Positions 37,601 to 60,449 of a stretch of 64,000 nucleotides of DNA are shown here, in pieces; the first letter of the stretch is position 1, and each line of letters starts with the position of its first letter. This DNA comes from Antedon mediterranea. Lineage: Eukaryota; Animalia; Echinodermata. Location: NCBI RefSeq assembly GCF_964355755.1, contig NC_092679.1:9903432-9967431 (forward strand), given 5' to 3'. The notes under the pieces are model-generated. The model was not told the DNA's origin, did no database searches, and saw only the letters and a program-made list of their open reading frames with translations. The position numbers and the translations under genes are program-made.

Positions 37601-40600
37601 GAGAGAGATAGATCAGCGAGAGAGAGAGAGGTCAGCGAGAGAGAGAGATAGATCAGCGAGAGAGAGATAGATCAGCGAGAGAGAGATAGATAGATCAGCG
37701 AGAGAGAGATAGATAGATAAGCGAGAGAGAGATAGATCAGCGAAAGAGAGATAGATAGATCAGCGAGAGAGAGATAGATCAGCGAGAGAGATAGATTAGC
37801 GAGAGAGAGATAGATAGATGAACGAGAGAGAGATAGATCAGCGAGAGAGAGATAGATCATCGAGAGAGAGATAGATCAGCGAGAGAGAGATAGATAGATC
37901 AGCGAGAGAGATATAGATAGATCAGCGAGAGAGAGATAGATAGATCAACGAGAGAGAGATAGATAGATCAGCGAGAGAGAGATAGATGAGCGAGAGAGAG
38001 ATAGATCAGCGAGAGAGAGATAGATCAGCGAGAGAGAGAGAGAGAGATAGATAAGCGAGAGAGAGATAGATCAGCGAGAGAGAGATAGATCAGCAAGAGA
38101 GAGATAGATCAGCGAGAGGGAGAGATAGATCAGCGAGAGAGAGATAGATCAGCGAGAGAGAGATAGATCAGCGAGAGAGATAGATCAGCGAGAGAGAGAT
38201 AGATCAGCGAGAGAGAGAGATGGATCAGCGAGAGAGAGAGAGATAGATCAGCGAGATAGAGAAAGATCTGCGAGAGAGAGATAGATCAGCGAGAGAGAGA
38301 TAGATCAGCGAGAGAGAGAGATAGATAAGCGAGATAGAGAAAGATCAGCGAGAGAGAGATAGATCAGCGACAGAGATATAGATCAGCGAGAGAGATATAG
38401 ATCAGCGAGAGAGATATTGATCAGCGAGAGAAAGATAGGTCAGCGAGAGATAGATAAATCAGCGAGAGAGAGATAGATCAGAGAGAGAGAGAGATAGATC
38501 AGCGAGAAAGAGATAGATAAGCGAGAGAGATAGATAGATCAGCGAGAGATAGATAGATCAGCGAGAGAGAGAGAGAGATAGATCAGCGAGAGAGAGAGAG
38601 ATAGATCAGCGAGAGAGAGATAGATCAGCGAGAGGGAGAGATAGATCAGCGAGAGAGATATAGATCAGCGAGAGAGAGATAGATCAGCGAGAGAGAGATA
38701 GATCAGCGAGAGAGAGATAGATCAGCGAGAGAGAGAGATAGATCAGCGAGAGAGAGAGATAGATCAGCGAGAGAGAGAAAGATCAGCGAGAGAGAGATAG
38801 ATCAGCGACAGAGAGATAGATCAGCCAGAGAGAGATAGATCAGCCAGAGAGAGAGAGATCAGCGAGAGAGAGAGATAGATCAGCGAGAGAGAGATAGATC
38901 AGCGAGAGAGAGATAGATAGATCAGCGAGAGAGAGATAGATAGATCAGCGAGAGAGAGATAGATAGATCAGCGAGAGAGAGATAGATAGATCAGCGAGAG
39001 AGAGATAGATGAGCGAGAGAGAGATAGATCAGCGAGAGAGAGATAGATCAGCGAGAGAGAGAGATAGATAAGCGAGAGAGAGAGAGAGATAGATCAGCGA
39101 GAGACAGATAGATCAGCGAGAGGGAGAGATAGATCAGCGAGAGAGAGATAGATCAGCGAGAGAGAGAGAGATAGATCAGCGAGAGAGATAGATTAGCCAG
39201 AGAGAGATAGATAGATGAGCGAGAGAGAGATAGATCAGCGAGAGAGAGATAGATCAGCGAGAGAGAGATAGATAGATCAGCGAGAGAGAGATAGATCAGC
39301 GAGAGAGAGATAGATCAGCGAGAGAGATAGATCAGCGAGAGAGAGAGAGATAGATCAGCGAGAGAGAGAGAGAGATGGATCAGCGAGAGAGAGAAAGATT
39401 AGCGAGAGAGAGATAGGTCAGCGACAGAGAGATAGATCAGCGAGAGAGAGATAGATCAGCGAGAGAGATATAGATCAGCGAGAGAGAGAGATAGATCAGC
39501 GAGAGAGAGAGTTAGATCAGCGAGAGAGAGAAAGATCAGCGAGAGAGAGATAGATCAGTGAGAGAGAGATAGATAAGCGAGAGAAAGATAGATTAGCGGG
39601 GGAGAGATAGATCACCGAGAGAGAGAGAGATAGATCAGAAATAGAGAGATAGATCAGCGAGAAAGAGATAGATCAGCGAGAGAGAGATAGATTAGCAAGA
39701 GAGAGATAGATCAGCGAGAGAGAGGTAGATCAGCGAGAGAGAGAGAAATCAGCCAGAGAGAGATAGATCAGCGAGAGAGATAGATCAGCGAGAGAGAGAT
39801 AGATCAGCGAGAGAGAGATAGATAGATCAGCGAGAGAGAGATAGGTCAGCGAGAGAGAGATAGATCAGCGAGAGAGATAGATAGATCAGCGAGAGAGAGA
39901 TAGATCAGCGAGAGAGAGAGAGAGATAGATCAGCGAGAGAGAGATAGATCAGCGAGAGAGAGATAGATCAGCGAGAGAGAGATAGATCAGCGAGAGGGAG
40001 AGATAGATCAGCGAGAGAGAGATAGATCAGCGAGAGAGATAGACCAGCGAGAGAGAGATAGATCAGCGAGAGAGATAGATCAGCGAGAGAGAGAGATAGA
40101 TCAGCGAGAGAGAGAGAGATAGATCAGCGAGAGAATGAAAGATCAGCGAGAGAGAGATAGGTCAGCGACAGAGAGATAGATCAGTGAGAGAGAGATAGAT
40201 CAGCGAGAGAGATATAGATCAGCGAGAGAGAGATAGATCAGCGAGAGAGAGATAGATCAGCGAGAGAGAGAAAGATCAGCGAGAGAGAGAGAGATAGATC
40301 AGTGAGAGAGAGATAGATCAGTGAGAGAGAGATAGATTAGCGAGAGAGATAGATCAGTGAGAGAGAGAGAGAGAGAGATAGATCAGAGAGAAAGAGATAG
40401 ATCAGCGAGAGAGAGATAGATCAGCGAGAGAGAGATAGATTAGCAAGAGAGAGATAGATCAGCGAGAGAGAGATAGATCAGCGAGAGAGAGAGAGATCAG
40501 CGAGAGAGAGATAGATCAGCGAGAGATAGATAGATCTGCGAGAGAGAGATATATCAGCGAGAGAGAGATAGATAGATCAGCGAGAGAAAGATAGATCAGC

Positions 40601-41580
40601 GAGAGAGATATAGATCAGCGAGAGAGAGATAGATCAGCGAGAGATAGATAGATCAGCAAGAGATAGAGAGAGATAGATCAGCAAGAGAGAGATAGATCAG
40701 CGAGAGAGAGAGATAGATCAGCGAGAGCAAGATAGATTAGCGAGAAAGAGATAGATCAGCGAGAAAGAGATAGATCAGCGAGAGAGAGAGATAGATCAGC
40801 GAGAAAGAGATAGATCAGCGAGAGAGATAGATAGATCAGCGAGAGAGAGATAGATCAGCGAGAGAGAGATAGATCAGCGAGAGAGAGATAGAACAGCGAG
40901 AGAGATAGATCAGCGAGAGAGAGATAGATCAGCGAGAGAGAGAGATAGATCAGCGAGAGAGAAAAAGATCAGCGAGAGAGAGATAGGTCAGCGACAGAGA
41001 GATAGATCAGCGAGAGAGAGATAGATCAGCGAGAGAGATATAGATCAGCGAGAGAGAGAGATAGATCAGTGAGAGAGAGATAGATCAGCGAGAGAGAGAA
41101 AGATCAGTGAGAGTGAGATAGATCAGTGAGAGAGATATAGATCAGCGAGAGAGAGATAGATTAGCGATAGAGAGATAGATCAGCGAGAGAGAGAGAGATA
41201 GATCAGAGAGAAGAGAGATAGATCAGCGAGAGAGAGATAGATCAGCGAGAGAGAGATAGATTAGCAAGAGAGAGATAGATCAGCGAGAGAGAGATAGATC
41301 AGCGAGAGAGAGATAGATCAGCGAGAGAGAGATAGATCAGCGAGAGAGAGATAGATCAGCGAGAGAGAGATAGATCAGCGAGAGAGAGATAGATCAGCGA
41401 GAGAGAGATAGATCAGCGAGATAGAGAAAGATCAGCGAGAGAGAGATAGATCAGTGACAGAGAGATAGATCAGCGAGAGAGAGATAGATCAGCGAGAGAG
41501 ATATAGATCAGCGAGAGAGATATAGATCAGCGAGAGATAGATAGATCAGCGAGAGAGATAGAGATAGATCAGCAAGAGAG
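13027..41580 (+). repeat. Purine-rich minisatellite TAGATCAGC(GA)n (~19-bp modal unit), ~28.5-kb block
   Basis: Continuous tandem copies with variable GA number, optional TAGA duplications and recurring point variants. Confidence 0.98.
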
Positions 41581-43730
41581 CACATTCATTTAGACTAGAC
41601 AAAAAGTAGTGAGCCCTCTAGCGGTCATTTGTGATTTCTGAGATTCATCGAAGCGCGACAACATCACCCGGAAATGATGTGAATTTAAAATTTTAATAGG
41701 GTTAAACTCTTTTAACCAATTGAAAGCCTTAAAATTATAGTTCCTTATGAATAATTCATGAGAATAATTAAAGCAAGGGTTGAAGAAGCATGTGACTTGG
41801 TTTTTGGAATAGGATAGCAGTTATGATCGTGTCAGGTAATCATTGAATTTGCTCTTCTTTTTGTTAGATTTTTTACGGTTTTTATCAATAATAATATTTT
41901 ACATTTTTACGAGACCATAAAAAAATTCCTCAATTTTTGAGTAAACGAGTGACTAAATAAAAAGTTACTATGTAATGTAAAGATTCGTTTGACAAAAAAT
42001 GGGCATGTTGATATTTTCAGATATTTTTTAAATGGCGATTGAAATAGGTAAACAAATCACATGTATAACGGTGGTTTGTGCGAAGCTGGGCCTAGCCTTT
42101 ATGGTCCAACGCGTACTGCGTGTTAATCAATGCGTATAGATACACACGTAGTCGTTTAGGCCATTTTTTTACATGTTTATTTATTAATATTAGGCCCCAT
42201 TCTCATTTATTTTAATTAATGTACTGAATGTACCACACTTTACAACTCTATTTAAATTAGATTTTGTACTTGTATTAAATTCAAACGTTTTATGGGATTT
42301 AAAACATTAAGCTAGGCCTTGTAGTAGGCCTATGACCACATGTTAGGTTTTTCAGCCTAATTTATCATGCAGTATACCTCTAGCCCATCTTTCAAATACA
42401 TATTTAAATTAACATACTTTTTATATTTCTATATTTTTTATAGGATCTGACTCCAGAAAACATTTGCATCACTTGAAAGCGGCTATTTATGGACAGCATG
42501 TTGACATTCAAAAAAATTTGACCAGCTCTTATTAATTAAATGTCTTTTAAATTAAAGGTGTTCATTATAATGAAATGTACGGTGACAGAAATTTAAATCA
42601 TTCTCATAATTGAGGTTTCTCATAGATTTAATATTGAAGGTAAATAAATAAAGCTGTTTGTTATTCTTGCCTTTAGAAATAAACATGTTGTTAGTACTAT
42701 ATTATTAGGCCTAGGCCATTATACAAATTAAAACTAAAAAATACAGTAATCATATTTAAGGCCTACACAGCAGTACCTTACTTGATTTGATTTCTTTCAA
42801 ATATTTAATTGATGAAATAAATGAGTTTGACTTTTCAATTAGTTGCCATTTTATTAGTTTCTGTGTGTTTTTTATTTATATTCTTAAATTAATTGTATAC
42901 AACAACTTTAAAGTATTGCGAAGAAGTGATCAAATTATAGTAGGCCTATTTGTATGTTATTGTCGCTTAAAATTATGCAGTTAAAGTATTTGATTTTAGG
43001 GTGACAGAAACGGTTAGGCAAGAAAAGAAATAAATGTGGTTATTTTGTTATGCGGTAAAAACAATTAAACATAATTTACCCCTAATGCATGTAAATGTAG
43101 AAAACATTGCTTATGTTAGCGCGACCGAAACTCGCTACTGGGAATAGAGCCTGCAAAAGCGACGCGTACACACCTACTCGGGCACCGGCGGAGCCCGATC
43201 GATAGTAAATATACCCGATTTCCAATGGTCATAAAATTCTTTTAAAAAATATCAACATTTTGATTTTTTGAAGATTAAAAGTAAAGATATTGAAATTTAA
43301 CAAACTATTTACAAATATGTATTTAAAAATTCGGAAACAATTTTAGCGTGATATTAAAACAAACTTTTTAGAGTTCCGCGATTTCCTACGCAGGATGTTT
43401 GTTTTCATTGTTAATGGGCAAATGTTACCTAAACTAGAATCGTTATAAATCTTTTAAATTTGTATTATAATTAATTTCTTTAGTATTCTTAGTAACATCG
43501 AATGTCTCTAATTAACTAGCAGTTATTTATATTAACTGTTGTTTAATAATAAGCGTGTATGAAGTGAAAATCTATAGTAATAATGTTCTTAGTCAGTTCG
43601 TCTCGCTCGCGTGAAGTCTTCGGGTTTCTCAATACAATTCTCAGCGGTAAGATAGGCTCGCGCTAATGTTTAAATCAAAAGCGCTCTCAAAACACTTTTT
43701 GTCCAAAATTCGCAATATGACGTGAGTGTG
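41581..43730. mobile_element. 2,150-bp non-autonomous CAC...GTG DNA transposon with asymmetric RSS-like ends
   Basis: Left end CACATTC-11 bp-ACAAAAAGT-AGTGAGCCCTCTA. Right end (reverse complement) CACACTC-21 bp-ACAAAAAGT-GTTT. Flanked by agag/agag: the equivalent empty satellite unit has 4 AG and here there are 3+3, consistent with a 4-bp TSD. No long ORF. Confidence 0.85.
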
Positions 43731-44379
43731 AGAGAGATAGATCAGCGAGAGAGAGAGATAGATCAGCGAGAGCGAGATAGATTAGCGAGAGAGAGATAGA
43801 TCAGCGAGAGAGAGATAGATCAGCGAGAGAGAGAGATAGATCAGCGAGAAAGAGATAGATCAGCGAGAGAGATAGATCAGCGAGAGAGAGATAGATCAGC
43901 GAGAGAGAGAGAGAGAGATAGATCAGCGAGAGAGAGAGATAGATCAGCGAGAAAGAGATAGATCAGCGAGAGAGAGATAGATCAGCGAGAGGGAGAGATA
44001 GATCAGCGAGAGAGATATAGATCAGCGCGAGAGAGATAGATCAGCGAGAGAGAGAGATAGATCAGCGAGAGAGAGAAAGATCAGCGAGAGAGAGATAGAT
44101 CAGCGACAGAGAGATAGATCAGCCAGAGAGAGATAGATCAGCCAGAGAGAGAGAGATCAGCGAGAGAGAGAGAGATAGATCAGCGAGAGAGAGAGATAGA
44201 TCAGCGAGAGAAAGAGAGATAGATCAGCGAGAGAGAGATAGATCAGCGAGAGAGAGATAAATCAGCGAGAGAGAGAGATAGATCAGCGAGAGAGAGATAG
44301 ATCAGCGAGAGAGAGATAGATCAGCGAGAGAGATATAGATCAGCGAGAGAGAGATAGATCAGTGAGAGAGAGATAGATC
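43731..44379 (+). repeat. TAGATCAGC(GA)n minisatellite
   Basis: Same unit; continues in register across the 41581-43730 insertion. Confidence 0.97.
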
Positions 44380-44804
44380 GAAGAAATTTGGTTAATGCAA
44401 TCTAGGAACAATGAAGCGCAACCAGTACGCTACTTGAAAGATATCTCTTAATTGTTGTTATTATTTGACAATAATTTGGACTTTTATTTGGTGTTGAACT
44501 CATAGTGATAAACAAAGAACTCATATAAAAGGAAAGTACACTTTTTATTACAGAACCTATTGCTAGATCCAAGTGATTTAGACCTTCAACGCCTAGGCCC
44601 ACGGATAGGAAAAAAAAGTTGTACCATACGATCTATACAGGGTTAGTTTGGCCCTTTTCATTGCTGGGACCTGAAACGATCGTACCGCGTCTTTTCTGCC
44701 TTCTAATCGGCCAATCAGTGCGAGGCGTCGTTGTGCTAGGCAACAGTACTTTCTATTGTCTTCTTTTGTTCATTGAAATCGTACAAATACCACTGCATAG
44801 CGAG

Positions 44805-46683
44805 ATGGCTAATGCAACAATGCAACACATAGAAATGGCTGAAAAACTAATTAAATCTAAGAAAACTAAAAAGAAAAAGGTTTATGCTGTTGCTGTCGGG
44901 AAACAACCAGGTATATATTTATCCTGGCTGGAATGCAAAGCAAACACACATTTTTTAGTGTTGAAAAAGCCGAAAAATATCTCAGCGAAAATGGGGTGTG
45001 CAATGACTTAGAATGTACTGATGCAACTAAAGTCATTGATGCTGAAGAGGAACTACCTTTAGTAAATACAGCTATTGAAAGTAACAAAATAGATACTGAA
45101 TGTAATGATACATATTACATGACCTGGTAACCACTTATGTAAATGACCTCCAAAACCTCCATTCCGCTTGCACTCAATCACATTTTGATCACTCATTAGC
45201 TTCTCCAAATCTATCTGATTTGCTAAAAGAAAACTTCGAACTTAAAATTAAAATGTCTGAAAATGAGAATAGAGTCCTGAAAGATAAATTACTAGGTAAA
45301 AACAATGATTGTGCTATTTTGTTTGAAGCTCTAAAAGATATTCGACGTGAGCTTAAAGAATTTAAAAAAGAGGTTAAATCCCTACAAGAAAATAGAAAAT
45401 TCAAACAGAATGTAAATATTAAATTCGAAGCTCTTAAGTCCGATGTAACACATTTGCAGCATACTTTACAACTGTTGCAGCAAAAAGATAAGGAAGTGAC
45501 AAAACTACACGATCTACTTATCTCAGTTCATAAAGATGCTGCTAAAGCCAAAGATGAAGCATACGATGCGAAAATAACCCAAGTTGCTATTGACACATCT
45601 GACTTTATTACTGTGAAGGGGCATAGTGTTACTCAACATAAAACCTGTCCCCAACTTGGTCTGCACGATAGATGTTCCTCTCCTCAAGAACAGTCTATAC
45701 ATCTGACCTCATTGGACCTCCCGAAACAAAATCGGTCTAATGTAGAACCAAATTGTGACAGCAAAGTTATCGATGATTCTCGGACTTATTCTGAGCAGCT
45801 AATTGACACTCTATATAACGCATTGGATACGACTAGCCCTACTAAAGATGTAACGAAGAGTACTGGAAAAGTTGATTCTTATCAACTACAGCTTCATAAA
45901 TACCGTAATAAACATAAAGCACTAAGCGACACACAACAAATTGCTGATAAAACTGCTAGTACTCAAGATTACACAATTCCAGCTGACGTTCTGATTATTG
46001 GCGATTCAATGATTAAACATCTTCGTCCCAAACGATTAAATAATTCTACTGAAAAAAAAGTGATATGCCACACTATGCGTGGTGCAAAAATAGAAGACCT
46101 CGCGCATTGTGCCAAGCGTCTTGCAGTAAAACATGGTGTTGAAAGAGTGATTGTTCATGTGGGAACTAACAATAGAAATGACAGTTCAGACACTTTGACC
46201 TCAAAAACGACATCTCTGTGTGAAACCTTGAAGCCAATAAAGTGCACAGTTTCCTCCATCATACACCGACGCAATTCAACCAGACAGTCTCGAAATGCGA
46301 TGATGTAGAGAGAGCAAATCACCATATGAAACTCATATGCAAAGAGAATGGCTGGGGATTTACTAATAATACAAATATTCCATTCATGAAACTATCTTCT
46401 GATGGAGTTCATCTTAGCGAAGAACATTATTGATCACATAAGTAGTGAATCGGCGATGAGTCCACCTCCGTCATTTTTTTCTGCTCTCAAATCAGTACCA
46501 ACCAATTCGTCAGAGAGAATGCGTCAATCATCAACAAGGGACTATAAAAATCGATGCAAGAAAAGAAAGAAAAGAGTGGTTCAAGTACCTGGAACTTGTA
46601 CGAGAGCTGCTAAATCCACAAAAACCTACCTACACAAATTAAATTCAATTTTGCAAATTCGTCACTTATATTTTGTTTGCTAA
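44805..46683 (+). pseudogene. L2 ORF1 (frameshifted): RNase H1-type hybrid-binding domain, coiled coil, SGNH esterase
   Basis: VYAVAVGKQPGIYLSWLECKA / FFSVEKAEKYL, a K/E/L-rich coiled-coil-like stretch, and SGNH blocks VLIIGDSMIK, RGAKI, IVHVGTNN, DGVHLS. Spread over several frames. Confidence 0.78.
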
Positions 46684-49521
46684 ATGCTCGTTCATTGCGT
46701 AACAAAAGTGATGAATTCACAGACTTTGTTGTTAGTAATGACATTGATATCGTGTCTGTGTCTGAAACATGGCTTCAACCTGATGACAACCTCTCCATTA
46801 GAAACATAACTCCACTTGGATATTGTTTCAAACATGTTCCTAGATTGGATAAAATCGGTGGAGGGATTGGAATTTTATATAAATCTAGTATAAGTGTTAA
46901 TATGAAAAATGATGTAAATGTTTATTCTTCATTTGAAACAATACATTAACAGTTTACATTAAGTTCAAAAACAATTTATATTGTATGCATCTACAGACCA
47001 CCGAGTTTGTCTGTCACCGACTTTCTTAATGAATTTGAAAATATGATTTTTGATTATCTCATTATTCCATCAGAAGTAATTTTTTGTGGTGATTTTAATA
47101 TCCACATTGATGAAAATGAGAATATCGCTGCAAATAAATGTAATCGTCTATTGCAGTCTTTCAATCTTATACAGCATGTAAATGAACCTACGCATGATGG
47201 TGGTCATTGTCTTGATCTCATTATTACTAGAGATGTTTCTCTGATCTCGGGGATCACTGTAAAACCGGGTATCTCTGATCATTTTTCTATACTTTGTAGT
47301 CTCGACTTCAAGAAACCACCTCTACCTAAATCTAAAATTAAAATCCGCAAATATAAACAGTATTGATACAACAATATTTTCATATGACATACAAGCTCGG
47401 TTGTCTGATATGCATGATGGTACTTTGCAAGAAAATATTGAAAGATACTGCTCTTTAAGAGAAGTTATGGATAAACACGCACCTTTAAAAACAAAATGTA
47501 TCAAACTAAATTCTTCAAAACCGTGGTATACTGATGAAATTAGATCTGCGAGAAAACTCCGTCGCGTATTTGAGAGAAAATGGATGAAATCAAAAAATAC
47601 ATTAGATAGACAGAAATATTGTCATCAGCGGTGTATTGTTAATATGCTTGTTGAAAGTGCTAAGAAACAATATTATTCTGATCTGGTCGAAGATTGCTCA
47701 GGTGATCAGAAGAAGCTGTTTAAAGTTGTAAATAATCTTTTACACTGTTCTAAATCGTCGGTGCTTCCATTTTCTCACTCAGATGAGTTGCTTGCAGAAA
47801 GATTTTCCATATTTAAAAAAAATAAAATTGTTAATATTCGTAAACTTTTTGTTAAAGATAGTGCTGGAAGTTTGTCTCATTACTTTAATAACGACGTATG
47901 CTGTGAAAATTATAATTGTCCCTCCCTTTGTATATTTGAACCTGCAAGTGAAAAAGAAATTTCTGAAATTGTCAAAAACTCGCCTGCTAAATTTTGCAGT
48001 CTTGATCCAGTTCCTATTCTGTTAATTAAGAGAAATGCTGTTGTTTTTGTTCCACTAATTACACGTGTCGTTAATCTGTCTTTGGAAACTGGGGTTTTCC
48101 CAGATATTTGTAAAATCTCACACATACGTCCTCAATTAAAGAAATCGGGTCTTGCTCCTGAAAAGCTATCCAATTACAGACCAGTATCAAATCTGTGTTT
48201 TCTTGGAAAAGTAATTGAAAAAGTGGTATCTAAACGTATACTATCACATGTAAAGGATAATTCTTTACTTGACCCGTTTCAATCAGCGTATAAAGCACAT
48301 CACAGTACTGAAACTGCACTCCTGCGCGTTAGCAATGATATACTTCGTGCGATGGATGTTGAAAAAGTAACTGCTTTAATTTTACTTGATTTGAGTGCTG
48401 CGTTTGATACGGTAGATCATAGTATTCTGACTGAGAGGTTGCATGCTTCTATTGGTGTTCAAGGATGTACACTAAGATGGTGTCAATCATACTTGGAGGA
48501 CAGACCTCAACACATTTGTATTAGAGAGGAAATCTCTCAACCTACCACTTTAAATTACTCTGTTCCGCAAGGATCTGTGTTAGGTCCACAATTGTTTACA
48601 ATTTATGTATATCCTATTCGTGATATCATTAAGAAATATAATCTTAGTTATCATGTTTACGCTGATGACACTCAGATATATATATCGTTTAAACCTACCA
48701 TGACAAAGAGTGAATTATCAATTGATTTGCTTGAAAAATGTATCTCTGAAATTCGTGTCTGGATGGCCAAAAACTTTTTGAAACTTAATGATGATAAGAC
48801 TGAGTGCATCCTATTTGGTTCGCAACAACAATTAGAGAAAATTCCATCTAAGAGGGTTTCCATTGGTAACTTTTGTACTAAAAATACTACACAAGTTACA
48901 AATCTTGGTGTAATTCTGGATTCTAATATGACAATGACGGCTCATAATTTCTAAAATTACGTCTGCATCGTCATATCATTTAAGAAATATTCAAGGCATC
49001 AGAAAATACTTAAATTGTGCAGCTGCTGAGCAACTTGTACATGCATTTGTTAGTTCGCGTCTCGATATGTGTAACTCCTTGTTATTTGGTCTCCCACAAA
49101 AACAACTCCACAGGCTTCAGCTGATTCAAAATACAGCGGCACGAGTTGTTAAAAACTACCAAGATATGCACACATATCAAATACCTTGGAAACTTTGCAT
49201 TGGCTTCCTGTTAGGTACCGCATTGTTTTTAAATTATTACTCTATGTTTTTAAGTCTATTAATGGCATGGCTCCTGAATATATTTCTGACATGCTTAGGC
49301 TGTATGTTCCCAGACGGAATCTGCGTTCTAGTGATACGCTGCTTCTACATCAACCTAAGTCTCACCACTCATGGGGAGACAGAGCTTTCACCGTTACTGC
49401 TTCTCGTCTATGGAATGCAATACCAAGCTCTATCAGATTTTGCAAAACTTTTGATACTTTTAAAAAATTATTAAAAACACATTTATTCATTAAGGCATAT
49501 GGAAATCATGAGGTTTCTTAA
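46677..49521 (+). pseudogene. L2 ORF2 (APE endonuclease + reverse transcriptase), with stops and frameshifts
   Basis: APE: LNARSL, SETWL, GGGIGIL, GDFNIH, HCLDLI, SDHF. RT: NYRPVSNL, LDLSAAFDTVDH, PQGSVLGP, YADDTQIY. Confidence 0.92.
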
Positions 49522-49816
49522 AGTTCTAGAATTTTATAGTATACTTTTTCCTGACCAGCATTATCTTATCTTGGTTGTTGTCTCTGAGCACCCGGTCGTC
49601 TGTGGCAAGGCAAATGTGTATCCTGTTCCTTTGTTTGGTCATCTAGGTAGGGGTCCGAGACCGCGACAGAACGAGAACGGATGGGGACCCTCCAAAGAAA
49701 TTGCATTTTATTTGTCAGGCATTTGTATGATTCGTTTTAAATTTTTTTTTGAATGCGCCTTGAGCACTCTTGAGTGGTATGTGCGCTATAAAAACCCTGT
49801 TATTATTGTTATTATT

Positions 49817-50108
49817 ATAGATCAGCGAGAGAGAAATAGATCAGCGAGAGAGATAGATCAGCGAGAGAGAGATAGATCAGCGAGAGAGAGAGAGAGAGAG
49901 AGATCAGCGAGAGAGATAGATCAGCGAGAGAGAGATAGATCAGTGAGAGAGAGATAGATCAGCGAGAGAGAGATAGATCAGCGAGAGAGATAGATCAGCG
50001 AGAGAGAGATAGATTAGCGAGAGAGAGATAGATCAGCGAGAGAGAGATAGATCAGCGAGAGAGAGATAGATCAGCGAGAGAGAGAGAGATCAGCGAGAGA
50101 GAGATAGA

Positions 50109-50155
<47 letters not shown>

Positions 50156-53037: not shown

Positions 53038-53187
53038 GATCTATCTCTCTCTCGCCGATCTCTCTCTCTCTCCCCCGCTGATCTATCTCTCTCGCTGATC
53101 TCTCTCTCTCTCTCTCTCTCTCGCTGATCTATCTCTCTCTCGCTGATCTATCTCTCTCGCTGATCTATCTCTCTCTCGCTGATCTAT
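53038..53187 (-). repeat. Inverted ~150-bp stretch of the minisatellite
   Basis: Strand switches to (TC)nGCTGATCTA at ~53038 and runs up to the tail of the inverted L2. Confidence 0.92.
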
Positions 53188-53835
53188 AATAATAATAATA
53201 ACAGGGTTTTTATAGCGCACATACCACTCAAGAGTGCTCAAGGCGCATTAAAAAAAAAAAAATTTAAACAAATCATACAAATGCCTGACAAATAAAATGC
53301 AATTTCTTTGGAGGGTCCCCATCCGTTCTCGTTCTGTCGCGGTCCCGGACCCCTACCTAGATGACCAAACAAAGGAACAGGATACACATTTGCCTTGCCA
53401 CAGACGACCGGGTGCTCAGAGACAACAACCAAGATAAGATAATGCTGGTCAGGAAAAAGTATACTATAAAATTCTAGAACTTTAAGAAACCTCATGATTT
53501 CCATATGCCTTAATGAATAAATGTGTTTTTAATAATTTTTTAAAAGTATCAAAAGTTTTGCAAAATCTGATAGAGCTTGGTATTGCATTCCATAGACGAG
53601 GAGCAGTAACGGTGAAAGCTCTGTCTCCCCATGAGTGGTGAGACTTAGGTTGATGTAGAAGCAGCGTATCACTAGAACTCAGATTCCGTCTGGGAACATA
53701 CAGCCTAAGCATGTCAGAAATATATTCAGGAGCCATGCCATTAATAGACTTAAAAACATAGAGTAATAATTTAAAAACAATGCGGTACCTAACAGGAAGC
53801 CAATGCAAAGTTTCCAAGGTATTTGATATGTGTGC

Positions 53836-53872
53836 CACGGCAGTTTCAAACGCGATATCCGAGACACAAAGT
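53836..53872 (+). promoter_or_regulatory. 5' end: RSS-like heptamer - 21-bp spacer - nonamer
   Basis: CACGGCA gtttcaaacgcgatatccgag ACACAAAGT gttt. Confidence 0.7.
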
Positions 53873-54496
53873 GTTTACAACGCGCTTTTGATTGATACGC
53901 CTGGCGCGTGCCTTGAGCAGCTATTTATAGCCCACCAACATCGAGCGAAATGTTTACATTCGCTAGCTATAAACAGAGAGTGTATCATACGAAGTAAATA
54001 CAGTCTTACAATGACCAATTAATAAAGTTTTCCTCGAATCTTACAGTGTTTGCTTTGTTATTGTATTTTGTATTAGGGAAAATTGTCTAGGATTAAAAAA
54101 TATTATTAAAAAAGCGAAATTTTAACGATGTTTGCGATAGTTTCAAAAGCTGAAAATTTACATAAATAGCGCCCTCACGGCGAAAGTTTATCGTCGCGGT
54201 AAGTTCAAGCTTTTGATCGTCTGATAGCAAATCTCTGCAATTTTTTCGAGCAACACCGTTAATTCCAAGTGAAAGCGGAGACTTTATTCTTTATTTAGCT
54301 CAAAATTCAGGCTGACGTCTACTTTCAAATTGATTTGAGCTAAATTTGAAATTGACTTATTTCTGTTCAAAATTCCAGTGATTTTATAGGTAAAAATAGG
54401 CCTAGGGCAAAGTTAATTATATATTTTTTAAAGAATTGTGTATTGGTTTTGCATTGACTGTATGTGGTATGTTACTGTTATTTATTGTCTTGTGAA

Positions 54497-57400
54497 ATGG
54501 AGTACCATACATATGCATTGAGTAATTTATGTCGTGTATGTGGTGTCAAGTTAACACGAAATCAGCGAAAATTTGACCTAACTAAAGTAAAAGATAGCGT
54601 CCTGACATTTTTAAATATCAATTTAACTCATGAAAACAAAGATGTACATCCACCATTCATTTGCAAGAACTGTCAATTTTCAAGCTATAACAAGGTTAGC
54701 ACAACTCAAAGGTACATCTGGAGACAACACACACAACAATCATGTTTCACATGTTATTTATTATCAGAACAGTCAAAACCAGGTAAGAGACTAAAACAAG
54801 TAAAACTCAACACATTATTTTCTGAAACAGAATGTGACGTTATTCCATCAAAATTTACAGTCAATGACAAAATCAATTCTGAACCTTTCATTTGCCAAAT
54901 ATGCAACTCGATTTTGTCTTTCAACAGTCTTGAGTCAAACTGTTCACATCACTATTGTTCTAGTTGTATGTATAATTTGTTTAGTACCCTCCATGTTAAC
55001 GTATGTTCATGTCTTGTGTGCGCAAAGCCAATGCACATGCTGGAATTTAAACCCGCCTCCCAAATTGTAATAGAGTCTCTAAAATCACTAGAATTACAAT
55101 GCTCGTGCAATAAGTTCATAAAATACTCTCAACATCAGAGACATATTTGTGAACACCAGACAACTAAAGAAGTGATTTATCATAATGTTTCAAAAGCTGT
55201 ATCAATGTTAGAGAAATCACTAGAAGATAGTCATGTCTCCCAAACAATACAAACGTTTGCAGAAAAAGTTGTTTACAATCAACTAAAGAAAAGTAAGGAA
55301 ATGCTGATTGCAACAAATGGTCGGGTGAGTGCTTTAAAACAAATTCTGTAATTATCATATTGCATGTTATAAAAAGTAGATTAATATTATTATAACAGAA
55401 TTGTTAGCATAAAACATACAAATACAATTCTTATCTACAGCCAGCAAAGATTGCTATGATACCAAACACCAAAGTCTCAAGCGATAAGGCCAGTTCTCGA
55501 ACTGTTTCAAGACGAGCAAATAGCATCAGCAGCATCATAAAATCAGTTGGCAATAGTGAGGCTGGTGATTTCCATCAAAAAGTGTACTCAGCCAAACATA
55601 TGAGTCAAGCGGTCTTAAAAACAGCCAACATAGCATCAACTTCGTCTATAGATACAGATAAGGCTCTGGCAATGGTGTCAGACTGCCATCTGGCATGGAA
55701 CCAGCTACGAAAGCTAAGAAGGTAAACAAACAATTATGTGATTAAATAAAACCATGCATGAATACAGGCATTTTAGACACAGTCAAGTATGTCTAATAAT
55801 AAAGCGAGACTACATTATTAATCATTTTTTATGTACTAGATATGTGGAGAAGGGGACAATACCATCAGAGAAAAGGATGCGGCAGCGGCAAAATGATCTC
55901 ATTGGGGATTATTTTGAATCCACAATGGAAATGCTATGTTTTAGGTCTGAGACGTCCCCAGACGGGATAGAATTAAGATCAACGCCTACTGTCAAACTGA
56001 AAAACATTAAAAAAGTTGTATTTTCATATCTTGATGAACACTCAAGGTACGCTGAAGTTAAATTTAAATATGTGCTTACAAAGTGTAGAACTTACTTTTT
56101 AGGACTTTACTTTTGTTCCTATGGATTTTGCTATGGAAATAAAAGTTAAAAGAAATTAATTAAAAACTGAATTAATATTTACTAAATTTTTTACAGACTG
56201 AACAACCTATCTCCCAATAATAACGAGATTTGGATAAAGTTTGGCGGGGATAAGGGAGGTGGAAGTACCAAATATGAGGTACAGATATGTAGCCTCGCCA
56301 AACCAAATTCAATTAACAACATCATCGTCGTACTAATATTTGATGCCCCTGACATGATGTTTAATATTAACCGGACTCTTCCGGAAGTGGCCCACCAAGT
56401 TGTTGCTTTGAACGGGGAAAAATGGCGGTAAGAATACAACTAGTATATCAACTTAACAATTATGTGGATGCGTATATAAGTAATAAAATAAAAATATATG
56501 TATAATTTCTTTCAGCAATTACACACTGAGAGTTTTCTGTTTTGGGGACTATGAATATCTAACAAAACTCTATGGATTAAATGGACCAAATGGTAAACTA
56601 TTAAATTATTTTATCATCATTTAATTTATACAAAATCTTTCTAAGCCAATTTTATTTATACTGTATTACTGCATATTTTAGCATTTTTAAACATTGTGAA
56701 AAAATTTGAATACTTTTAGCTCGATACTGCTGTCTCTTTTGTGAAAAACCAAAAGCAGAAATGCAATTAAAGGCACCACCCGCCAAACAGCGATCATTGG
56801 CTTCAATCAGAGCCAACTATAGAATGTTTATGGAAGATGGCGGAATTGAAAGCCGATCTAAGGATGTTTCCATGAGCGTTGTTAATAATCCCTTAGTATC
56901 AATTGAGGTAGATCATGTAAGTACATCAGTTTTGTTTTTAATTATCTTTATATTAGAGAAACAAATGTACTTACTTCATTATATGGCACTGTTGGTATTA
57001 AAATTTATATCTTTTAGGTGTCTGTTCCTAGCCTGCACTTGTCATTGGGCATATTCAAGAAGCTCTTTGATATGCTTGAGACGGAGGCGCACAGCATAGA
57101 TTGCCTCATATATTCCCTAAGGAAAAATGGAGAACTTGATGACACTTCTGAATCAAAGTTTGATAAAATAATTCAACATCAGATCCAAACACAAATTGAT
57201 ATCAAAGAAAAGATTGAAGAAAAGAAATTAAAGTTGACTGAGATGGAGGATGCAATGCCATTAATCTATCTTAAAGGAAGTGTTGATGGTAGCATCATTA
57301 CCAATGTGGGAAAGATAGTCAAATTGAGAGAAGAGATTGAGTCACTGGTAAGTTACTCAAACAATAAATGACATGTATGTGTCTGGCAAGACGCATCTAC

Positions 57401-58396
57401 ACACACACATACTCTAAAGACAAAACTTGTATTATATTTTATTTTACAGACAAAATGCATGGAAAATGGGCTTCCATTTGGAACGGGTCCAATTGTCACA
57501 TCACTGGAGCGTGTGCTACAAAAAAATCGCATCCAACGGCAAGCCTATCATGGTAAATCATTTATTGGTAACCATGTTCATAAATGTTGTCAGGTAAATT
57601 AACTATTCTTTTAATTGATATTGTTTCAACTGTTAATTATTAAAATTGTAGTTTTTAAAATGTATATTTGTTTTTAATAGGACCACGTTAGGAATGAACT
57701 AGTGAATGCTCCACTACATGAAATGAAAATTCAAGAAGCTGAGATTCCTATCGGAAAAATTCAGCTAATTGACAAAAGAGTAAAAGAATTAGTCACCAAG
57801 TACGATGCACTCCTTTCAAAATTTTCTAGGGTTCACAACAACTTGAATAATTCAAAACCTGTCACAGATGTTGATATTCAAAGAAATGGTAATGTAATTA
57901 TGCTTACCTTTCAAGGTATTCCTTAGACATGCCATTGTTTCTTTTCCTACAACACACTGCAACTGTTTCTTTTCTCTTCTACAAAAAAAAATTCAGATGA
58001 AGCCATAAAAGACTTTATGGAGGAATATCGAAAAACCAACAAAAGTATATCTCCAAAATTACATATGCTCGAGGAACATGTCATTCCCCAATTAAAGGCT
58101 TGGAGATTTGGTCTGGGACTGGTTAGCGAGCAAGGTGGGGAGTCTATTCACGCCGCGCTTAATAAAAGGAAAAGAACAGTTGCTGGGATGCATGACAGAC
58201 TTGGACAGTTAACATCCATGATGCGGTCACATGCAATTACCACTCAGCCATGCATAATAGAAGAAATAGTTGAACCCAAAAGAAGAAAAATTGGTAACAA
58301 TTTACACTTTATTGATTACACTATTTGTGCTTTTTAGCTCCCTGCTCACCAAAAATTAAATAAACCTGTTTATATTTTTCAGAAAAAGAAGAATAA
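54497..58396 (+). CDS. RAG1-like / Chapaev-type DDE transposase with N-terminal Zn domain and RING finger, 11 exons, ~937 aa, no stops in the spliced model
   Basis: Hand-built GT-AG model with compatible phases: 54497-55324, 55441-55721, 55840-56046, 56197-56427, 56516-56592, 56720-56916, 57018-57347, 57450-57593, 57681-57888, 57997-58293, 58383-58396 (last exon uncertain; the alternative stop is at 58337). Motifs: LCRVCG..HPPFICKNC..WRQH..CFTC; RING CQIC..CSHHYCSSC..CLVC; NGRP; GGDKGGG (D1); FGDYEYL (D2); CCLFC; LHLSLG; RQAYHGKSFIGNH; PKLHMLEEH; SEQGGESIH (E). Confidence 0.88.
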
Positions 58397-59542
58397 AGTA
58401 CACGACAATGAATACGAAATAAAAGAAAATATAGGCTTACTGATAAATCTGACGGAGTGCCATCTTCTTCTTTATTATGGATTCTCTTATGAACCACACT
58501 TGCATCAATAAAGTAGTCGTACTTGTTTGTGTTGGTGGTATTTTTGGAACCTGTAGTACAATTTTTGAATTATAAATATTTATCATCATTATTTTAAAAA
58601 AATGGTGGACTAGCGATTGAAATACATGATGAAATATTATATTATTATTAGGACTATACTGTCAAAATTAAAATCAAAATTTTATTTTTTATTCTACAAA
58701 TGCAATGCTGTTGCTGCCATAGTTTAGTAATATTCAAGCCATAGGAAGATAGACTATGATATTTTCACATTTTCTACTGTAGAATAACTTAGGCCCTCAT
58801 GAAAGCTAGTTAGTAAGTATACCTATCCTCCTAGGCCTACCTATGTCTTGATGGTACCATATTAAAAAATTAGGCCTAGCCTAGCTAGATAGAGCTGTTA
58901 CTAAGCCTGGCCCTGCTGATTTCCCCTCTTAACGACATATACTTGGGCTAGGCCTACTAAGAGTATATTATTCTAGGCCTAGGCCTATACAGTATTTATT
59001 TTTCGTGGCTTAAACCTAGTACTTGGTGACAAACCTTTGTTAGGCCTAGGCCTTTAGCAGCACACCCACGTGTGCAAAACAGGCAAATGGGCCCCGACTT
59101 TCTGTGTATATAATTATTAAACTGGATTAGACGTCAGCGAGATTTTTTAAATATTGTTTATCAAGTTTTTGAATTTTCACATCGACTAGGCGCCGATGTT
59201 TATGTAAATTGCAAAAAAAATATATAACCTCACCATTACCCTGTAATTAAACTGCTATTTTTTACTGTTTTTTGTCGCAAAATAGACGTAAGATTTCAAT
59301 ACTCATATCTGGTGAAGTCTTGAGAAACGGAGTGACCGCTGGCTTCGAATATCAATTACATGCCTTCTTCTTCGAATATAACATGAATATTCATTAAATT
59401 TTCAATTATAACACTGTCTATTGGTCAGTTTATTCCCTCTCTTTTACCAGGGTATTAAAAATAGTCTTCCGGGTATTTAAACTAGCGCCCTCTATAACAT
59501 AAAATAAGAAAAAGCGAGCATCGAAACTATAGAGGGCTCACC

Positions 59543-59570
59543 ACTTTTTGTCTCGCTGGAAACTGCCGTG
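59543..59570 (-). promoter_or_regulatory. 3' end: RSS-like heptamer - 12-bp spacer - nonamer
   Basis: Reverse complement CACGGCA gtttccagcgag ACAAAAAGT ggtgagccctcta. Confidence 0.75.
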
Positions 59571-60449
59571 GTGCATATCTTGGTAGTTTTTAACAACTCG
59601 TGCCGCTGTATTTTGAATCAGCTGAAGCCTGTGGAGTTGTTTTTGTGGGAGACCAAATAACAAGGAGTTACACATATCGAGACGCGAACTAACAAATGCA
59701 TGTACAAGTTGCTCAGCAGCTGCACGATTTAAGTATTTTCTGATGCCTTGAATATTTCTTAAATGATATGACGATGCAGACGTAATTTTAGAAATTATGA
59801 GCCGTCATTGTCATATTAGAATCCAGAATTACACCAAGATTTGTAACTTGTGTAGTATTTTTAGTACAAAAGTTACCAATGGAAACCCTCTTAGATGGAA
59901 TTTTCTCTAATTGTTTTTGCGAACCAAATAGAATGCACTCAGTCTTATCATCATCATTAAGTTTCAAAAAGTTTTTGGCCATCCAGACACGAATTTCAGA
60001 GATACATTTTTCAAGCAAATCAATTGATAATTCACCCTTTGTCATGGTAGGTTTAAACGATATATATATCTGAGTGTCATCAGCGTAAACATGATAACTA
60101 AGATTATATTTCTTAATGATATCACGAATAGGATACACATAAATTGTAAACAATTGTGGACCTAACACAGATCCTTGCGGAACAGAGTAATTTAAAGTGG
60201 TAGGTTGAGAGATTTCCTCTCTAATACAAATGTGTTGAGGTCTGTCCTCCAAGTATGATTGACACCATCTTAGTGCACATCCCTGAACACCAATAGAAGC
60301 ATGCAACCTCTCAGTCAGAATACTATGATCTACTGTATCAAACGCAGCACTCAAATCCAGTAAAATTAAAGCAGTTACTTTTTCAACATCCATCGCACGA
60401 AGTATATCATTGCTAACGCGCAGGAGTGCAGTTTCAGTACTGTGATGTG

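Follow-up and report, generated by a model that had tools for sequence, protein, structure and literature searches.

A likely non-autonomous Chapaev-type transposon with short and long RSS-like ends beside an intact Chapaev element

The Locus

The 64-kb stretch of DNA analyzed here (the window) carries two elements whose ends resemble each other (Table 1). The non-coding element splits a 19-bp satellite array, whose repeats reach 41580 on one side and start again at 43730/43731 on the other; the element is AT-rich and its ORFs are all at most 76 aa long. The coding element contains a transposase gene and lies in one copy of a repeated retroelement, of which an uninterrupted copy is found at 48293-49750. 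As an earlier sequence-only reading of the window had proposed, the two elements are in opposite orientation, the short end being at the left in the non-coding element and at the right (59570) in the coding one.

Table 1. Features of the two elements in the window.
Feature	Position	Strand	Description
Non-coding (non-autonomous) element	41581..43730	.	2150 bp, 30.6% GC; orientation opposite to coding element
Candidate left copy of 4-bp duplication	41577..41580	.	AGAG; from sequence and satellite-unit length
Candidate right copy of 4-bp duplication	43731..43734	.	AGAG; from sequence and satellite-unit length
Short end, non-coding element	41581..41620	+	CACATTC 41581-41587; 11-nt spacer 41588-41598; ACAAAAAGT 41599-41607; extension AGTGAGCCCTCTA 41608-41620
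Long end, non-coding element, inward from 43730	43653..43730	-	CACACTC 43724-43730; 21-nt spacer 43703-43723; ACAAAAAGT 43694-43702; then GTTT..GCGCTTTTGATT
Spliced, polyadenylated transcript in non-coding element	41811..42838	+	exons 41811-41835 and 42444-42838; AATAAA at 42817
Coding (autonomous-type) element	53836..59570	+	5735 bp; termini set by paralogous empty site
4-bp duplication of coding element	53832..53835 (left), 59571-59574 (right)	.	GTGC; single copy in empty paralog 49168-49171
Transposase gene	54497..58396	+	11 exons, introns all GT-AG; 937 aa; no internal stop codon

The Coding Element and Its Transposase

Contigs of the host retroelement family from public run X7 connect position 53835 immediately with what lies past 59574, and in the same run one contig begins exactly at 53836 and another stops at 59570. 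Taken alone, this site would formally also allow a duplication of 2 bp, with tips of CCAC.

The coding element is a real transposon, with exact ends, a 4-bp duplication, a gene free of internal stop codons and near-identical proteins elsewhere (on two other large contigs); it is apparently young, intact and multi-copy. An NCBI gene model (P0001) has the same splicing, differs at 4 of 555 residues and is 99.3% identical to exons 3-11. The Pfam family DUF1280 is recognized both in exon 4 (50.8 bits) and in P0001 (58.2 bits; cut-off 25), and this family is equated with Chapaev transposases in the accessible text of Majorek et al. (2014; PMC3985635). As judged from gene structure and domain content, the product of 54497-58396 is an intact Chapaev (DUF1280) transposase of 937 aa.

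The N-terminus of this enzyme resembles that of RAG1, like a Chapa domain plus RING, as far as sequence comparison indicates. Exon 1 matches the RING/zinc-finger region of RAG1 (RING+ZFA) in PDB with E=8e-4, the value against the RAG1 N-terminal clusters being 0.95. Its own Pfam matches lie below the cut-offs; in full-length relatives RAG1_imp_bd is found in eight of nine and a RING family in five of nine, and none of the nine has a match to any Pfam RAG1 DNA-binding family. A search for exon 1 homologs limited to longer proteins returned none, and exon 2 had no match to PDB sequences at E<=10.

For the catalytic core, a phmmer search of P0001 against PDB sequences gave no RAG1 core match at E<=10, so that the link to the RAG1 core is one of predicted fold only. 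The AlphaFold model of P0001 (pLDDT 85.7) was compared by Foldseek, and the listed matches with E<=0.001 were all RAG1, BbRAGL or HzTransib (best E=1.3e-11; TM 0.54-0.60). In structural superposition of the relative P0017, the VIA Z of its predicted core was 28.4 for mouse RAG1 residues 449-1008 (rmsd 3.8 A, 466 residues aligned), 25.2 for HzTransib and 24.4 for BbRAGL (PDB 6b40), against 9.7 for the next unrelated fold. The enzyme of the coding element is thus predicted to have the RAG1/Transib fold. A family-wide GGRP motif lies about 50 residues ahead of the segment aligned with RAG1 residue ~460 in the superposition, at the position of RAG1's nonamer-binding domain; for full-length P0017 the AlphaFold model has pLDDT <50 over the greater part of residues 1-352 (1-32, 49-317 and 326-352).

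A further relative, intronless and 934 aa long, is encoded at locus L001 of a marine-metagenome contig. No convincing CAC-tipped inverted ends were found there, only subterminal repeats (AAAAAG-N7-8-CCCTT) which resemble the short-end island described below and are given no weight.

Insertion and Content of the Non-Coding Element

The sequence-only reading had also held that the flanks of the non-coding element fit a 4-bp target-site duplication. They do, although the (GA)n flanks are compatible with 2 or 6 bp as well. Removal of the element plus 4 bp leaves a satellite unit of 19 bp, the modal length (142 of 261 units), while the other duplication lengths would leave rarer units: 21 bp for a 2-bp duplication (31 units), 23 bp for none (31 units) and 17 bp for 6 bp (7 units). 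Because 4 bp restores the modal unit, a 4-bp duplication is favored from the sequence, though not proven.

The content of the element agrees with the proposal that it is a second, non-autonomous member of the same kind, as do the homologous ends and the signs of multiple copies treated in the following sections. No transposase remnant was detected by tblastn with 183 family proteins (best E=0.033), tRNA scans of the element found none, and Rfam gave nothing above threshold, with a single sub-threshold match at E=0.69. The element includes a transcript of its own, for which the evidence is one 460-nt contig of run X2 that skips 608 nt with GT..AG ends and has a poly(A) loose end past 42838; its other loose end, at the 5' side, is presumably the template-switch oligo. 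The longest ORF in this transcript is 34 aa. When transposase RNA was sought in the cDNA-like runs X2 and X5, only 31-letter low-complexity pieces were found on the coding element.

Comparison of the Ends

At all four ends a CAC-initiated tip is followed, after a spacer, by the block (A/G)GACA[A/C]AAAGT and by an extension characteristic of the short or the long end. In the coding element the long end, at 53836, reads CACGGCA-21-ACACAAAGT-GTTT, and the short end, inward from 59570, reads CACGGCA-12-ACAAAAAGT-GGTGAGCCCTCTA. The short-end nonamer of the non-coding element is followed by A and GTGAGCCCTCTA, and the conserved island of its long end occupies 43669-43704.

The sequence-only reading described this anatomy correctly in outline, including the end-specific likeness, and was mistaken in two details. 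It gave spacers of 11 and 21 nt for both elements, which holds for the non-coding element and for the long end of the coding one, whereas the short spacer of the coding element is 12 nt, since the empty site puts the termini at 53836 and 59570. It also described a kept nonamer: ACAAAAAGT is present at three ends, and the long end of the coding element has ACACAAAGT, with one mismatch. The heptamers (CACATTC and CACACTC, as against CACGGCA) and the spacers (6 of 23 positions identical at the long ends) do differ between the elements, as claimed, and the extensions are kept, with GTTT at the long ends; here the shared sequence proved larger than had been noticed, forming islands of 24 nt at the short ends and 36 nt at the long ends.

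These likenesses exceed what shuffled sequence yields. The nonamer ACAAAAAGT occurs four times in the window (0.02 expected; 0 of 100 shuffles reach four), three of these occurrences being at element ends, and the 12-mer AGACAAAAAGTG has eight matches with at most two mismatches, of which the four with at most one mismatch are exactly the four element ends. Local alignment scores are 43 for the short ends (13.9+-2.3 in shuffled sequence) and 40 for the long ends (13.6+-2.1), values reached by 0 of 1000 shuffles in either case, while short-versus-long cross pairs have only GACAAAAAGT(G) in common. When the whole elements were compared by blastn, the only two matches with E<1e-3 were the two matched ends (24 nt at 96% for the short ends, 51 nt at 76% for the long ends), at equivalent offsets from the CAC tips.

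The likeness is confined to end-specific islands, as read from the alignments. The short-end island is identical at 23 of 24 positions, falling to 9/49 past it, and the long-end island (positions 27-62) at 28 of 36, including GCGCTTTTGATT, falling to 4/28. Outside the islands, positions 4-26 of the long ends stand at chance level (28% expected), as do the short-end tips past CAC, with 4 of 13 positions identical. The alignments support homology, end by end, of the ends of the non-coding element to those of the coding element, and likewise a drift of the spacer between CAC and block to chance identity. The block has kept its distance from the tip exactly at the long ends (27 and 27) and with a 1-nt offset at the short ends (17 and 18), so the claim that nonamer position is conserved while the spacer drifts is borne out in full at the former and nearly so at the latter. 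Short and long ends differ by 9-10 bp, about one helical turn.

The tips show a different pattern: the two tips of one element agree with each other, at 12/12 for the coding and 8/12 for the non-coding element, and differ from those of the other element. Because they match within each element but, past CAC, not between elements, the pattern suggests recognition of the tip sequence by a cognate enzyme and a possible dependence of the non-coding element on a transposase other than its neighbor's.

Copies in Public Sequence Data

Pieces of the non-coding element were found in public-run contigs from four studies, and the element appears to be multi-copy. In run X7 its interior has a contig depth of ~420-440 compared with ~50 for the coding element, about 8-fold, contig depth not being equivalent to copy number. 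The X7 contigs differ from the window by ~1-2.5%, and three of them diverge from it directly past 43730. Contig support for a boundary applies to 43730, the place of 41581 being swamped by satellite contigs. In run X1 the non-coding element is present in parts at a depth of 2.4-2.8, and the coding element only as 19-27-letter pieces. Among the public-run contigs there was no second copy of the non-coding element with both flanks. X7 joints across 41577-43735 were considered as empty sites and rejected; the matches run satellite-to-satellite. The short-end motif had 0 matches in each of three contig collections scanned (metagenome, prokaryote-genome and viral).

That the element is not mobile at all, but a unique sequence or an assembly artifact within the satellite with a chance likeness to transposon ends, is strongly disfavored and, in our estimate, highly improbable. 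The ambiguous duplication in the (GA)n flanks and the single copy in the window would agree with it; against it stand the shuffles for both end pairs, the equivalent offsets of both blastn matches from the CAC tips, the recurrence of parts of the element in four studies, an X7 depth about eight times that of the coding element, and the X7 contigs that diverge at 43730.

The Candidate Mobilizing Enzyme and a Possible Role of the Asymmetry

We consider it likely that 41581-43730 is a non-coding DNA transposon which shares islands, CAC tips and a short/long asymmetry with its Chapaev-type neighbor and is mobilized in trans by a Chapaev transposase that resembles RAG1. The element itself is best read as non-autonomous and of Chapaev type, with bipartite ends that are asymmetric and RSS-like; its membership in Chapaev would follow from end homology, DUF1280 being a feature of the coding partner. 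The 54497-58396 enzyme is the only mobilizer candidate in view and is not proven. We infer the block binding, the pairing rule and the choice of transposase as follows: the enzyme would dock on (A/G)GACA[A/C]AAAGT plus the end-specific extension, with the block 16-17 nt from the tip at a short end and 26 nt at a long end, would cut at the CAC tip, would bring a short and a long end together as a pair, and would insert the element with a 4-bp target duplication. Points against this best reading include the tips, which past CAC fail to match between the elements, the short spacers of 11 versus 12 nt, and the long spacer of 21 nt, which lies outside the 23+-1 of RSSs.

The tip pattern bears on which enzyme is involved. 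A credible minority reading is that the non-coding element belongs to a sister lineage and is moved by an autonomous parent of its own, with CACAYTC tips, rather than by the 54497-58396 enzyme, the islands being inherited family features. Such a parent would fit tips that are concerted within each element and at chance identity between them at least as well as the neighbor's enzyme does, the interior of the element is unrelated to the coding element, which is therefore not its source by deletion, and further divergent Chapaev-like proteins do occur in the same genus (P0012, of 951 aa and 32% identity, and P0032). No such parent is in view, however, and the identity of 23/24 in the short-end island argues for a much closer kinship than a protein identity of 32% would imply. 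RAG and Transib systems strictly require only CAC in the heptamer, and divergent tips are therefore no necessary obstacle to cross-mobilization.

A separate matter is whether the asymmetry of the ends has a function. It might be a neutral legacy of one old 9-10-bp indel in an imperfect terminal inverted repeat, with the islands acting as ordinary subterminal binding sites that have no 12/23-like role in pairing, a reading which we rate as rather unlikely. Ends of unequal length occur in many cut-and-paste transposons, the two elements disagree by 1 nt in their short spacers, 21 is not 23, and the comparison covers two elements only. A neutral origin accounts less readily for the exact preservation of the long-end distance across intervening bases with 6/23 identity, for the persistence of both the asymmetry and the end-specific extensions in two lineages, for a difference close to one helical turn, and for an enzyme with a predicted RAG1/Transib fold. 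Asymmetry of the 12/23 type is, besides, reported for RSSs and some Transib ends in the accessible text of Yakovenko et al. (2021; PMC8355894).

Likeness to Known Systems

In RSSs the heptamer is CACAGTG-like, with CAC essential and the remaining bases preferred, and the nonamer is ACAAAAACC. The four ends described here share with them the CAC-initiated heptamer, positions 4-7 being unrelated to that consensus, and an A-rich nonamer whose first seven of nine bases agree with the RSS nonamer (ACAAAAAGT at three ends, ACACAAAGT at the fourth). As in RSSs and in those Transib elements whose ends are of the 12/23 type (Yakovenko et al., 2021; accessible part), each element has one short end (11-12, within 12+-1) and one long end, and the coding partner encodes an enzyme predicted to have the RAG1/Transib fold. 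They differ from RSSs in long spacers of 21 in both elements, in the 4-bp duplication of the coding partner instead of 5 bp, and in end-specific extensions of the conserved block, which are absent from RSSs. A further difference is that the coding element leaves no space in which a RAG2-like gene could lie.

ProtoRAG and RAG-like transposons are similar in that the predicted core superposes on BbRAGL and in being intact, CAC-tipped transposons of deuterostome invertebrates, but ProtoRAG has a 27/31 asymmetry, no distinct nonamer, RAG2L and 5-bp duplications, according to the accessible sections of PMC8355894. The same sections describe N-RAG-TP of Aplysia, likewise a mobile element that encodes a sequence like the N-terminus of RAG1; in the protein of the coding element such an N-terminus is joined with a complete catalytic core.

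Chapaev (CMC superfamily) is placed in the "Transib superfamily" in the accessible text of Kapitonov and Koonin (2015; PMC4411706). With Chapaev elements the pair shares a coding partner with DUF1280 and a Chapa-like N-terminus plus RING, tips that start with CAC, and the partner's 4-bp duplication, CMC elements being credited with 2-4 bp in the portion of the sources available. Chapaev3 of lizard differs, with a 3-bp TWA duplication in the source excerpt. In the searchable literature, which does not include the original Repbase Reports, neither bipartite short/long ends nor a nonamer-like block was found described for Chapaev.

The non-coding element is comparable with MITE-like partners in its lack of coding capacity, ends in common with an autonomous element, unrelated interior and greater abundance. 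It differs in its length (2150 bp), in its own spliced, polyadenylated transcript, and in that only subterminal islands, and not the tips past CAC, are held in common, the usual pattern being the opposite.

Implications

The origin of the RSS design (heptamer, nonamer and 12/23 rule) is an open question, and certain Transib elements are the only known case of 12/23-type asymmetry apart from V(D)J recombination, as stated in the accessible text of PMC8355894. Chapaev systems lack any experimental validation according to the available portion of a 2026 Chapa-domain preprint (10.64898/2026.01.24.700457), in which the term TIR is absent and "nonamer" occurs once, in a figure legend that names RAG1's nonamer-binding domain. 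If the asymmetry were a neutral legacy, the finding would simply add a new family of non-autonomous Chapaev elements, in a genome of echinoderm type.

A bolder proposition, unlikely as it stands, is that Chapaev transposons, as the branch of the RAG1/Transib fold in which a RAG1-type N-terminus is already present, use a true heptamer-spacer-nonamer signal, one end being longer by one helical turn, that is read by a RAG1-like module, as the place of the GGRP motif would suggest. Nonamer reading and the short/long pairing of V(D)J recombination would then predate the RAG/Transib split or have arisen twice on one fold, and the gene-less element would be an independent replicate indicating that selection keeps spacing and nonamer but not spacer sequence.

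In this locus the end asymmetry, the nonamer-like block and the spacing between block and tip are all preserved in an abundant gene-less relative whose intervening bases are randomized. Together the two elements represent a natural two-point comparison as well as a substrate pair for the questions of bipartite signals and short/long pairing, with which the origin of the "12/23" signal design of antibody genes could be tested in an invertebrate.

Shared Ends of the Two Elements

The non-coding element (gene-less) and the coding element (the transposon carrying the transposase gene) lie in opposite orientation, as previously proposed, and both have asymmetric ends resembling recombination signal sequences (RSS), in which a heptamer beginning with CAC, a spacer, an A-rich nonamer and an extension are read inward. 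This short/long design, first noticed in the sequence-only reading, is real and, apart from two small corrections, well beyond chance. In the 64 kb, ACAAAAAGT occurs 4 times (0.02 expected), 3 of them at element ends, and the 4 occurrences of AGACAAAAAGTG with at most one mismatch are all four element ends. Comparison of the whole elements by blastn gave two matches with E<1e-3, both between matched ends: the short ends match over 24 nt (96%) and the long ends over 51 nt (76%). When the outermost 100 nt were aligned locally, short-short pairs scored 43 and long-long pairs 40, against ~14±2 for shuffled sequences (0 of 1000 shuffles reached either value); short-long alignments share only GACAAAAAGT(G).

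The likeness is confined to islands. Between the long ends, identity is 6/23 at positions 4–26 (28% expected by composition), 28/36 at 27–62 and 4/28 at 63–90, and between the short ends it is 4/13 in the first 16 nt, beyond CAC, 23/24 in the island and 9/49 in the following 49 nt; the proposed end-specific extensions are indeed kept in both elements. The islands start at position 27 from the tip at both long ends, in exact register, and at 17 and 18 at the short ends, offset by one. From these identities and this register, the pattern is CAC, a randomised spacer and a conserved end-specific island, located 9–10 bp deeper at the long end, which is consistent with fixed-spacing reading by a transposase.

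Features of the two elements and their surroundings (window positions)
Feature	Position	Strand or orientation	Description
19-bp satellite array	36000-41580 + 43731-44379		unit GATAGATCAGCGAGAGAGA; at least 180 units
Non-coding element	41581-43730	opposite to coding element	2150 bp; 30.6% GC; splits 19-bp satellite
Left (short) end	from 41581	inward	CACATTC, 11 nt, ACAAAAAGT, AGTGAGCCCTCTA
Right (long) end	from 43730	inward	CACACTC, 21 nt, ACAAAAAGT, GTTT
Spliced, polyadenylated transcript	exons 41811-41835 + 42444-42838	+	one 460-nt contig of run X2
Retroelement	44619-49957		RVT_1 ORF (1.2e-34); RNase H1 N-terminal-like piece
Coding element, long end (left)	53836	inward	CACGGCA-21-ACACAAAGT-GTTT
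Coding element, short end (right)	59570	inward	CACGGCA-12-ACAAAAAGT-GGTGAGCCCTCTA
Transposase gene	54497-58396		11 exons, GT-AG introns; 937 aa without stop
GGRP-type motif region	55310-55721 + 55840-56046		residues ~272-380 of coding-element protein; W-x-x-L-R-K-L-R-R block after serine-rich stretch

Boundaries and Target-Site Duplications

For the retroelement stretch 48293-49750, which carries RVT_1, a search for inverted repeats found an inverted, 99% identical paralog split by the coding transposon into two halves (53253-53835 and 59571-60452) that overlap by 4 bp at 49168-49171 of the intact copy, thus providing a natural empty/filled site pair. The three junctions read against the empty paralog place the coding element at 53836-59570 with GTGC duplicated on both sides; this site taken alone would formally also allow CCAC tips and a duplication of 2 bp. 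In the public sequencing run X7, one contig begins exactly at 53836 and another stops at 59570, and retroelement-family contigs link 53835 directly to the sequence after 59574, in agreement with these boundaries. Since the terminus is at 59570, the coding short spacer is 12 and not 11; of the spacers of 11 and 21 claimed for both elements, 21 stands at both long ends and 11 in the non-coding element. Similarly, the nonamer is retained as ACAAAAAGT at three ends, the coding long end having one mismatch. The coding short end also includes GCCCTCTA as an inverted pair within 59487-59541 (+ strand at 59487, − strand at 59530) that could form a stem, against a single copy in the non-coding element (41613).

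The satellite stops at 41580 and restarts at 43730/43731, interrupted by the non-coding element, whose (GA)n flanks are compatible with a duplication of 2, 4 or 6 bp. Excision of the element with 4 bp leaves a unit of 19 bp, which is the modal length and is found in 142 of 261 units, versus 21 for 2 bp (31 units), 23 for 0 bp (31) and 17 for 6 bp (7). The 4-bp duplication suggested earlier is favored because it restores the modal unit and matches the coding relative, although the flanks alone fit 2 or 6 bp as well. Similar arrays occur at 49803-53188 and 60532-62942 (inverted-repeat list), and the depth of the 19-bp satellite in public runs is very high (~5e4–5e5 in X7).

Content and Abundance of the Non-coding Element

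The element is poor in GC compared with the window mean of 40.7%. It contains no ORF >76 aa, a tRNA scan and Rfam (threshold) gave no tRNA and no match above threshold, and tblastn with 183 transposase-family proteins found no transposase remnant (best E 0.033), which, with ends homologous to those of the coding element, supports the proposal of a non-autonomous relative. Its transcript, from the cDNA-like run X2, has a GT..AG intron, AATAAA at 42817, poly(A) after 42838 and a longest ORF of 34 aa, and is antisense relative to the gene orientation of the transposon family. A GC-rich patch of 60–80 nt (43109-43190) has an X7 depth of 801 against ~440 around it, about twofold, which suggests a further small embedded repeat.

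Parts of the element are present in ten public runs from four studies. In X7, long contigs cover its interior at a word depth of ~420–440. Relative to the window they have 12 letter differences plus 3 gaps over 1272 letters, 5 plus 1 over 291 and 11 plus 3 over 544; the last 65 nt are covered by variant contigs of lower depth (6.5–11). Immediately after 43730 three contigs run on unlike the window (median 255 letters; mutual agreement 0.58), as expected from different insertion sites; this comparison covers the long end, satellite contigs dominating at the short-end boundary. The element is apparently multi-copy and in X7 roughly 8 times as abundant as the coding element (depth ~50), depth not being equal to copy number.

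The Transposase and Its Relatives

A near-identical protein is modeled by NCBI in Antedon mediterranea (P0001, 555 aa; identical splicing, 4/555 residues different), and a second model lies on another large contig. The transposase matches Pfam DUF1280 above cut-off, a family equated with Chapaev transposases and grouped with RAG1 in the retrieved text of Majorek et al. (2014; PMC3985635). Exon 1 aligns with the RAG1 RING and zinc-finger A region in PDB (E=8e-4, residues 131-225), and its nearest protein-atlas clusters are RAG1 N-terminal fragments (0.95). HMMER found 205 relatives of the N-terminus at E<=1e-3; among 22 scanned proteins (18 of the 150 listed N-terminal matches and 4 full-length relatives), RAG1_imp_bd occurs in 15 at E<=0.001 (13 above the Pfam cut-off) and DUF1280 in 6. 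Core relatives (31 at E<=1e-3) come from echinoderms, hemichordates, amphioxus and cnidarians.

At the level of sequence, no RAG1 entry in PDB matched the core. With its AlphaFold model (pLDDT 85.7), the Foldseek rows listed at E<=0.001 are only RAG1, BbRAGL and HzTransib (best E 1.3e-11, predicted model), and P0017, a full-length relative, superposes on mouse RAG1 449-1008 (Z 28.4, rmsd 3.8 Å, 466 residues), HzTransib (Z 25.2) and BbRAGL (Z 24.4), the next fold scoring 9.7. This RAG1-like N-terminus and distant core agree with the Chapaev picture in the retrieved sections of Kapitonov and Koonin (2015; PMC4411706), where some Chapaevs have a Chapa domain and RING and the core is distantly related to Transib.

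Alignment with nine full-length relatives reveals a conserved G-G-R-P block (NGRP here, residue 275), after which comes a basic stretch rich in serine; GGRP occurs in 62 of the 150 N-terminal relatives among the matches listed. In P0017 it lies at residue 301, and the residue superposing on RAG1 residue 460 follows 52 positions later; the RAG1 nonamer-binding domain, with its GGRPR motif, lies just upstream of residue ~460. Model confidence is low across this region, and scanning the nine relatives gave no match to RAG1 DNA-binding Pfam families. As a hypothesis, the region may be the reader of the A-rich block.

The Chapaev-like proteins of Antedon mediterranea include at least two others, both divergent: P0012 (951 aa, 32% identity, RAG1_imp_bd and DUF1280) and P0032 (467 aa). 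Several lineages thus coexist and could supply alternative parents of the non-coding element. An intronless relative (L001, 30% identical) on a marine-metagenome contig has inward-facing subterminal repeats AAAAAG-N7-8-CCCTT on both sides (387-425, 500-540, 3639-3657), which recall ACAAAAAGTGGTGAGCCCTC from the short-end island of the window elements; no convincing inverted ends with CAC tips were found there.

Mobilization and Comparison with Known Systems

The insertion in the satellite carries no gene, has CAC at its tips and shares the two end-specific islands of a Chapaev family. A Chapaev transposase would bind the conserved block and its extension, cut at CAC and pair one short with one long end. 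Only CAC is common to the tips of both elements, which agree within the coding (12/12) and the non-coding element (8/12); agreement within and difference between elements suggest that a cognate enzyme reads the tips, and thus point to a putative parent with CACAYTC tips rather than the neighboring enzyme, whereas the near-identity of the short-end islands indicates a very close relationship of the two elements. On this evidence the neighboring enzyme and that of a putative closer relative seem roughly equally probable as mobilizers.

By end homology the non-coding element belongs to the Chapaev (CMC) kind, and the 4-bp duplication of the coding element and the CAC tips fit the values quoted for these elements in the portions of papers retrieved. 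The ends of the non-coding element appear to work like an RSS pair but are not one: the long spacer is 21 and not 23±1, the duplication (in the coding partner) 4 bp and not 5, and the heptamer unrelated beyond CAC; the coding partner, at 5.7 kb, is too short to accommodate a RAG2-like gene. In the retrieved text of PMC8355894, V(D)J recombination apart, only some Transib elements are known to show 12/23-type asymmetry; the asymmetry of ProtoRAG is 27/31, and its ends lack a distinct nonamer. The searchable literature yielded no account of Chapaev ends that are both bipartite and asymmetric, and original Repbase Reports or consensus sequences may already show such ends; in the retrieved text of a 2026 Chapa-domain preprint (10.64898/2026.01.24.700457) the term TIR is absent and "nonamer" appears once, in a figure legend, for the RAG1 nonamer-binding domain. 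Taken simply as a transposable element, the non-coding element is of an ordinary kind; because it independently replicates an RSS-like end design in a Chapaev branch bearing the RAG1 N-terminus, it is of real interest for research on how V(D)J recombination arose.
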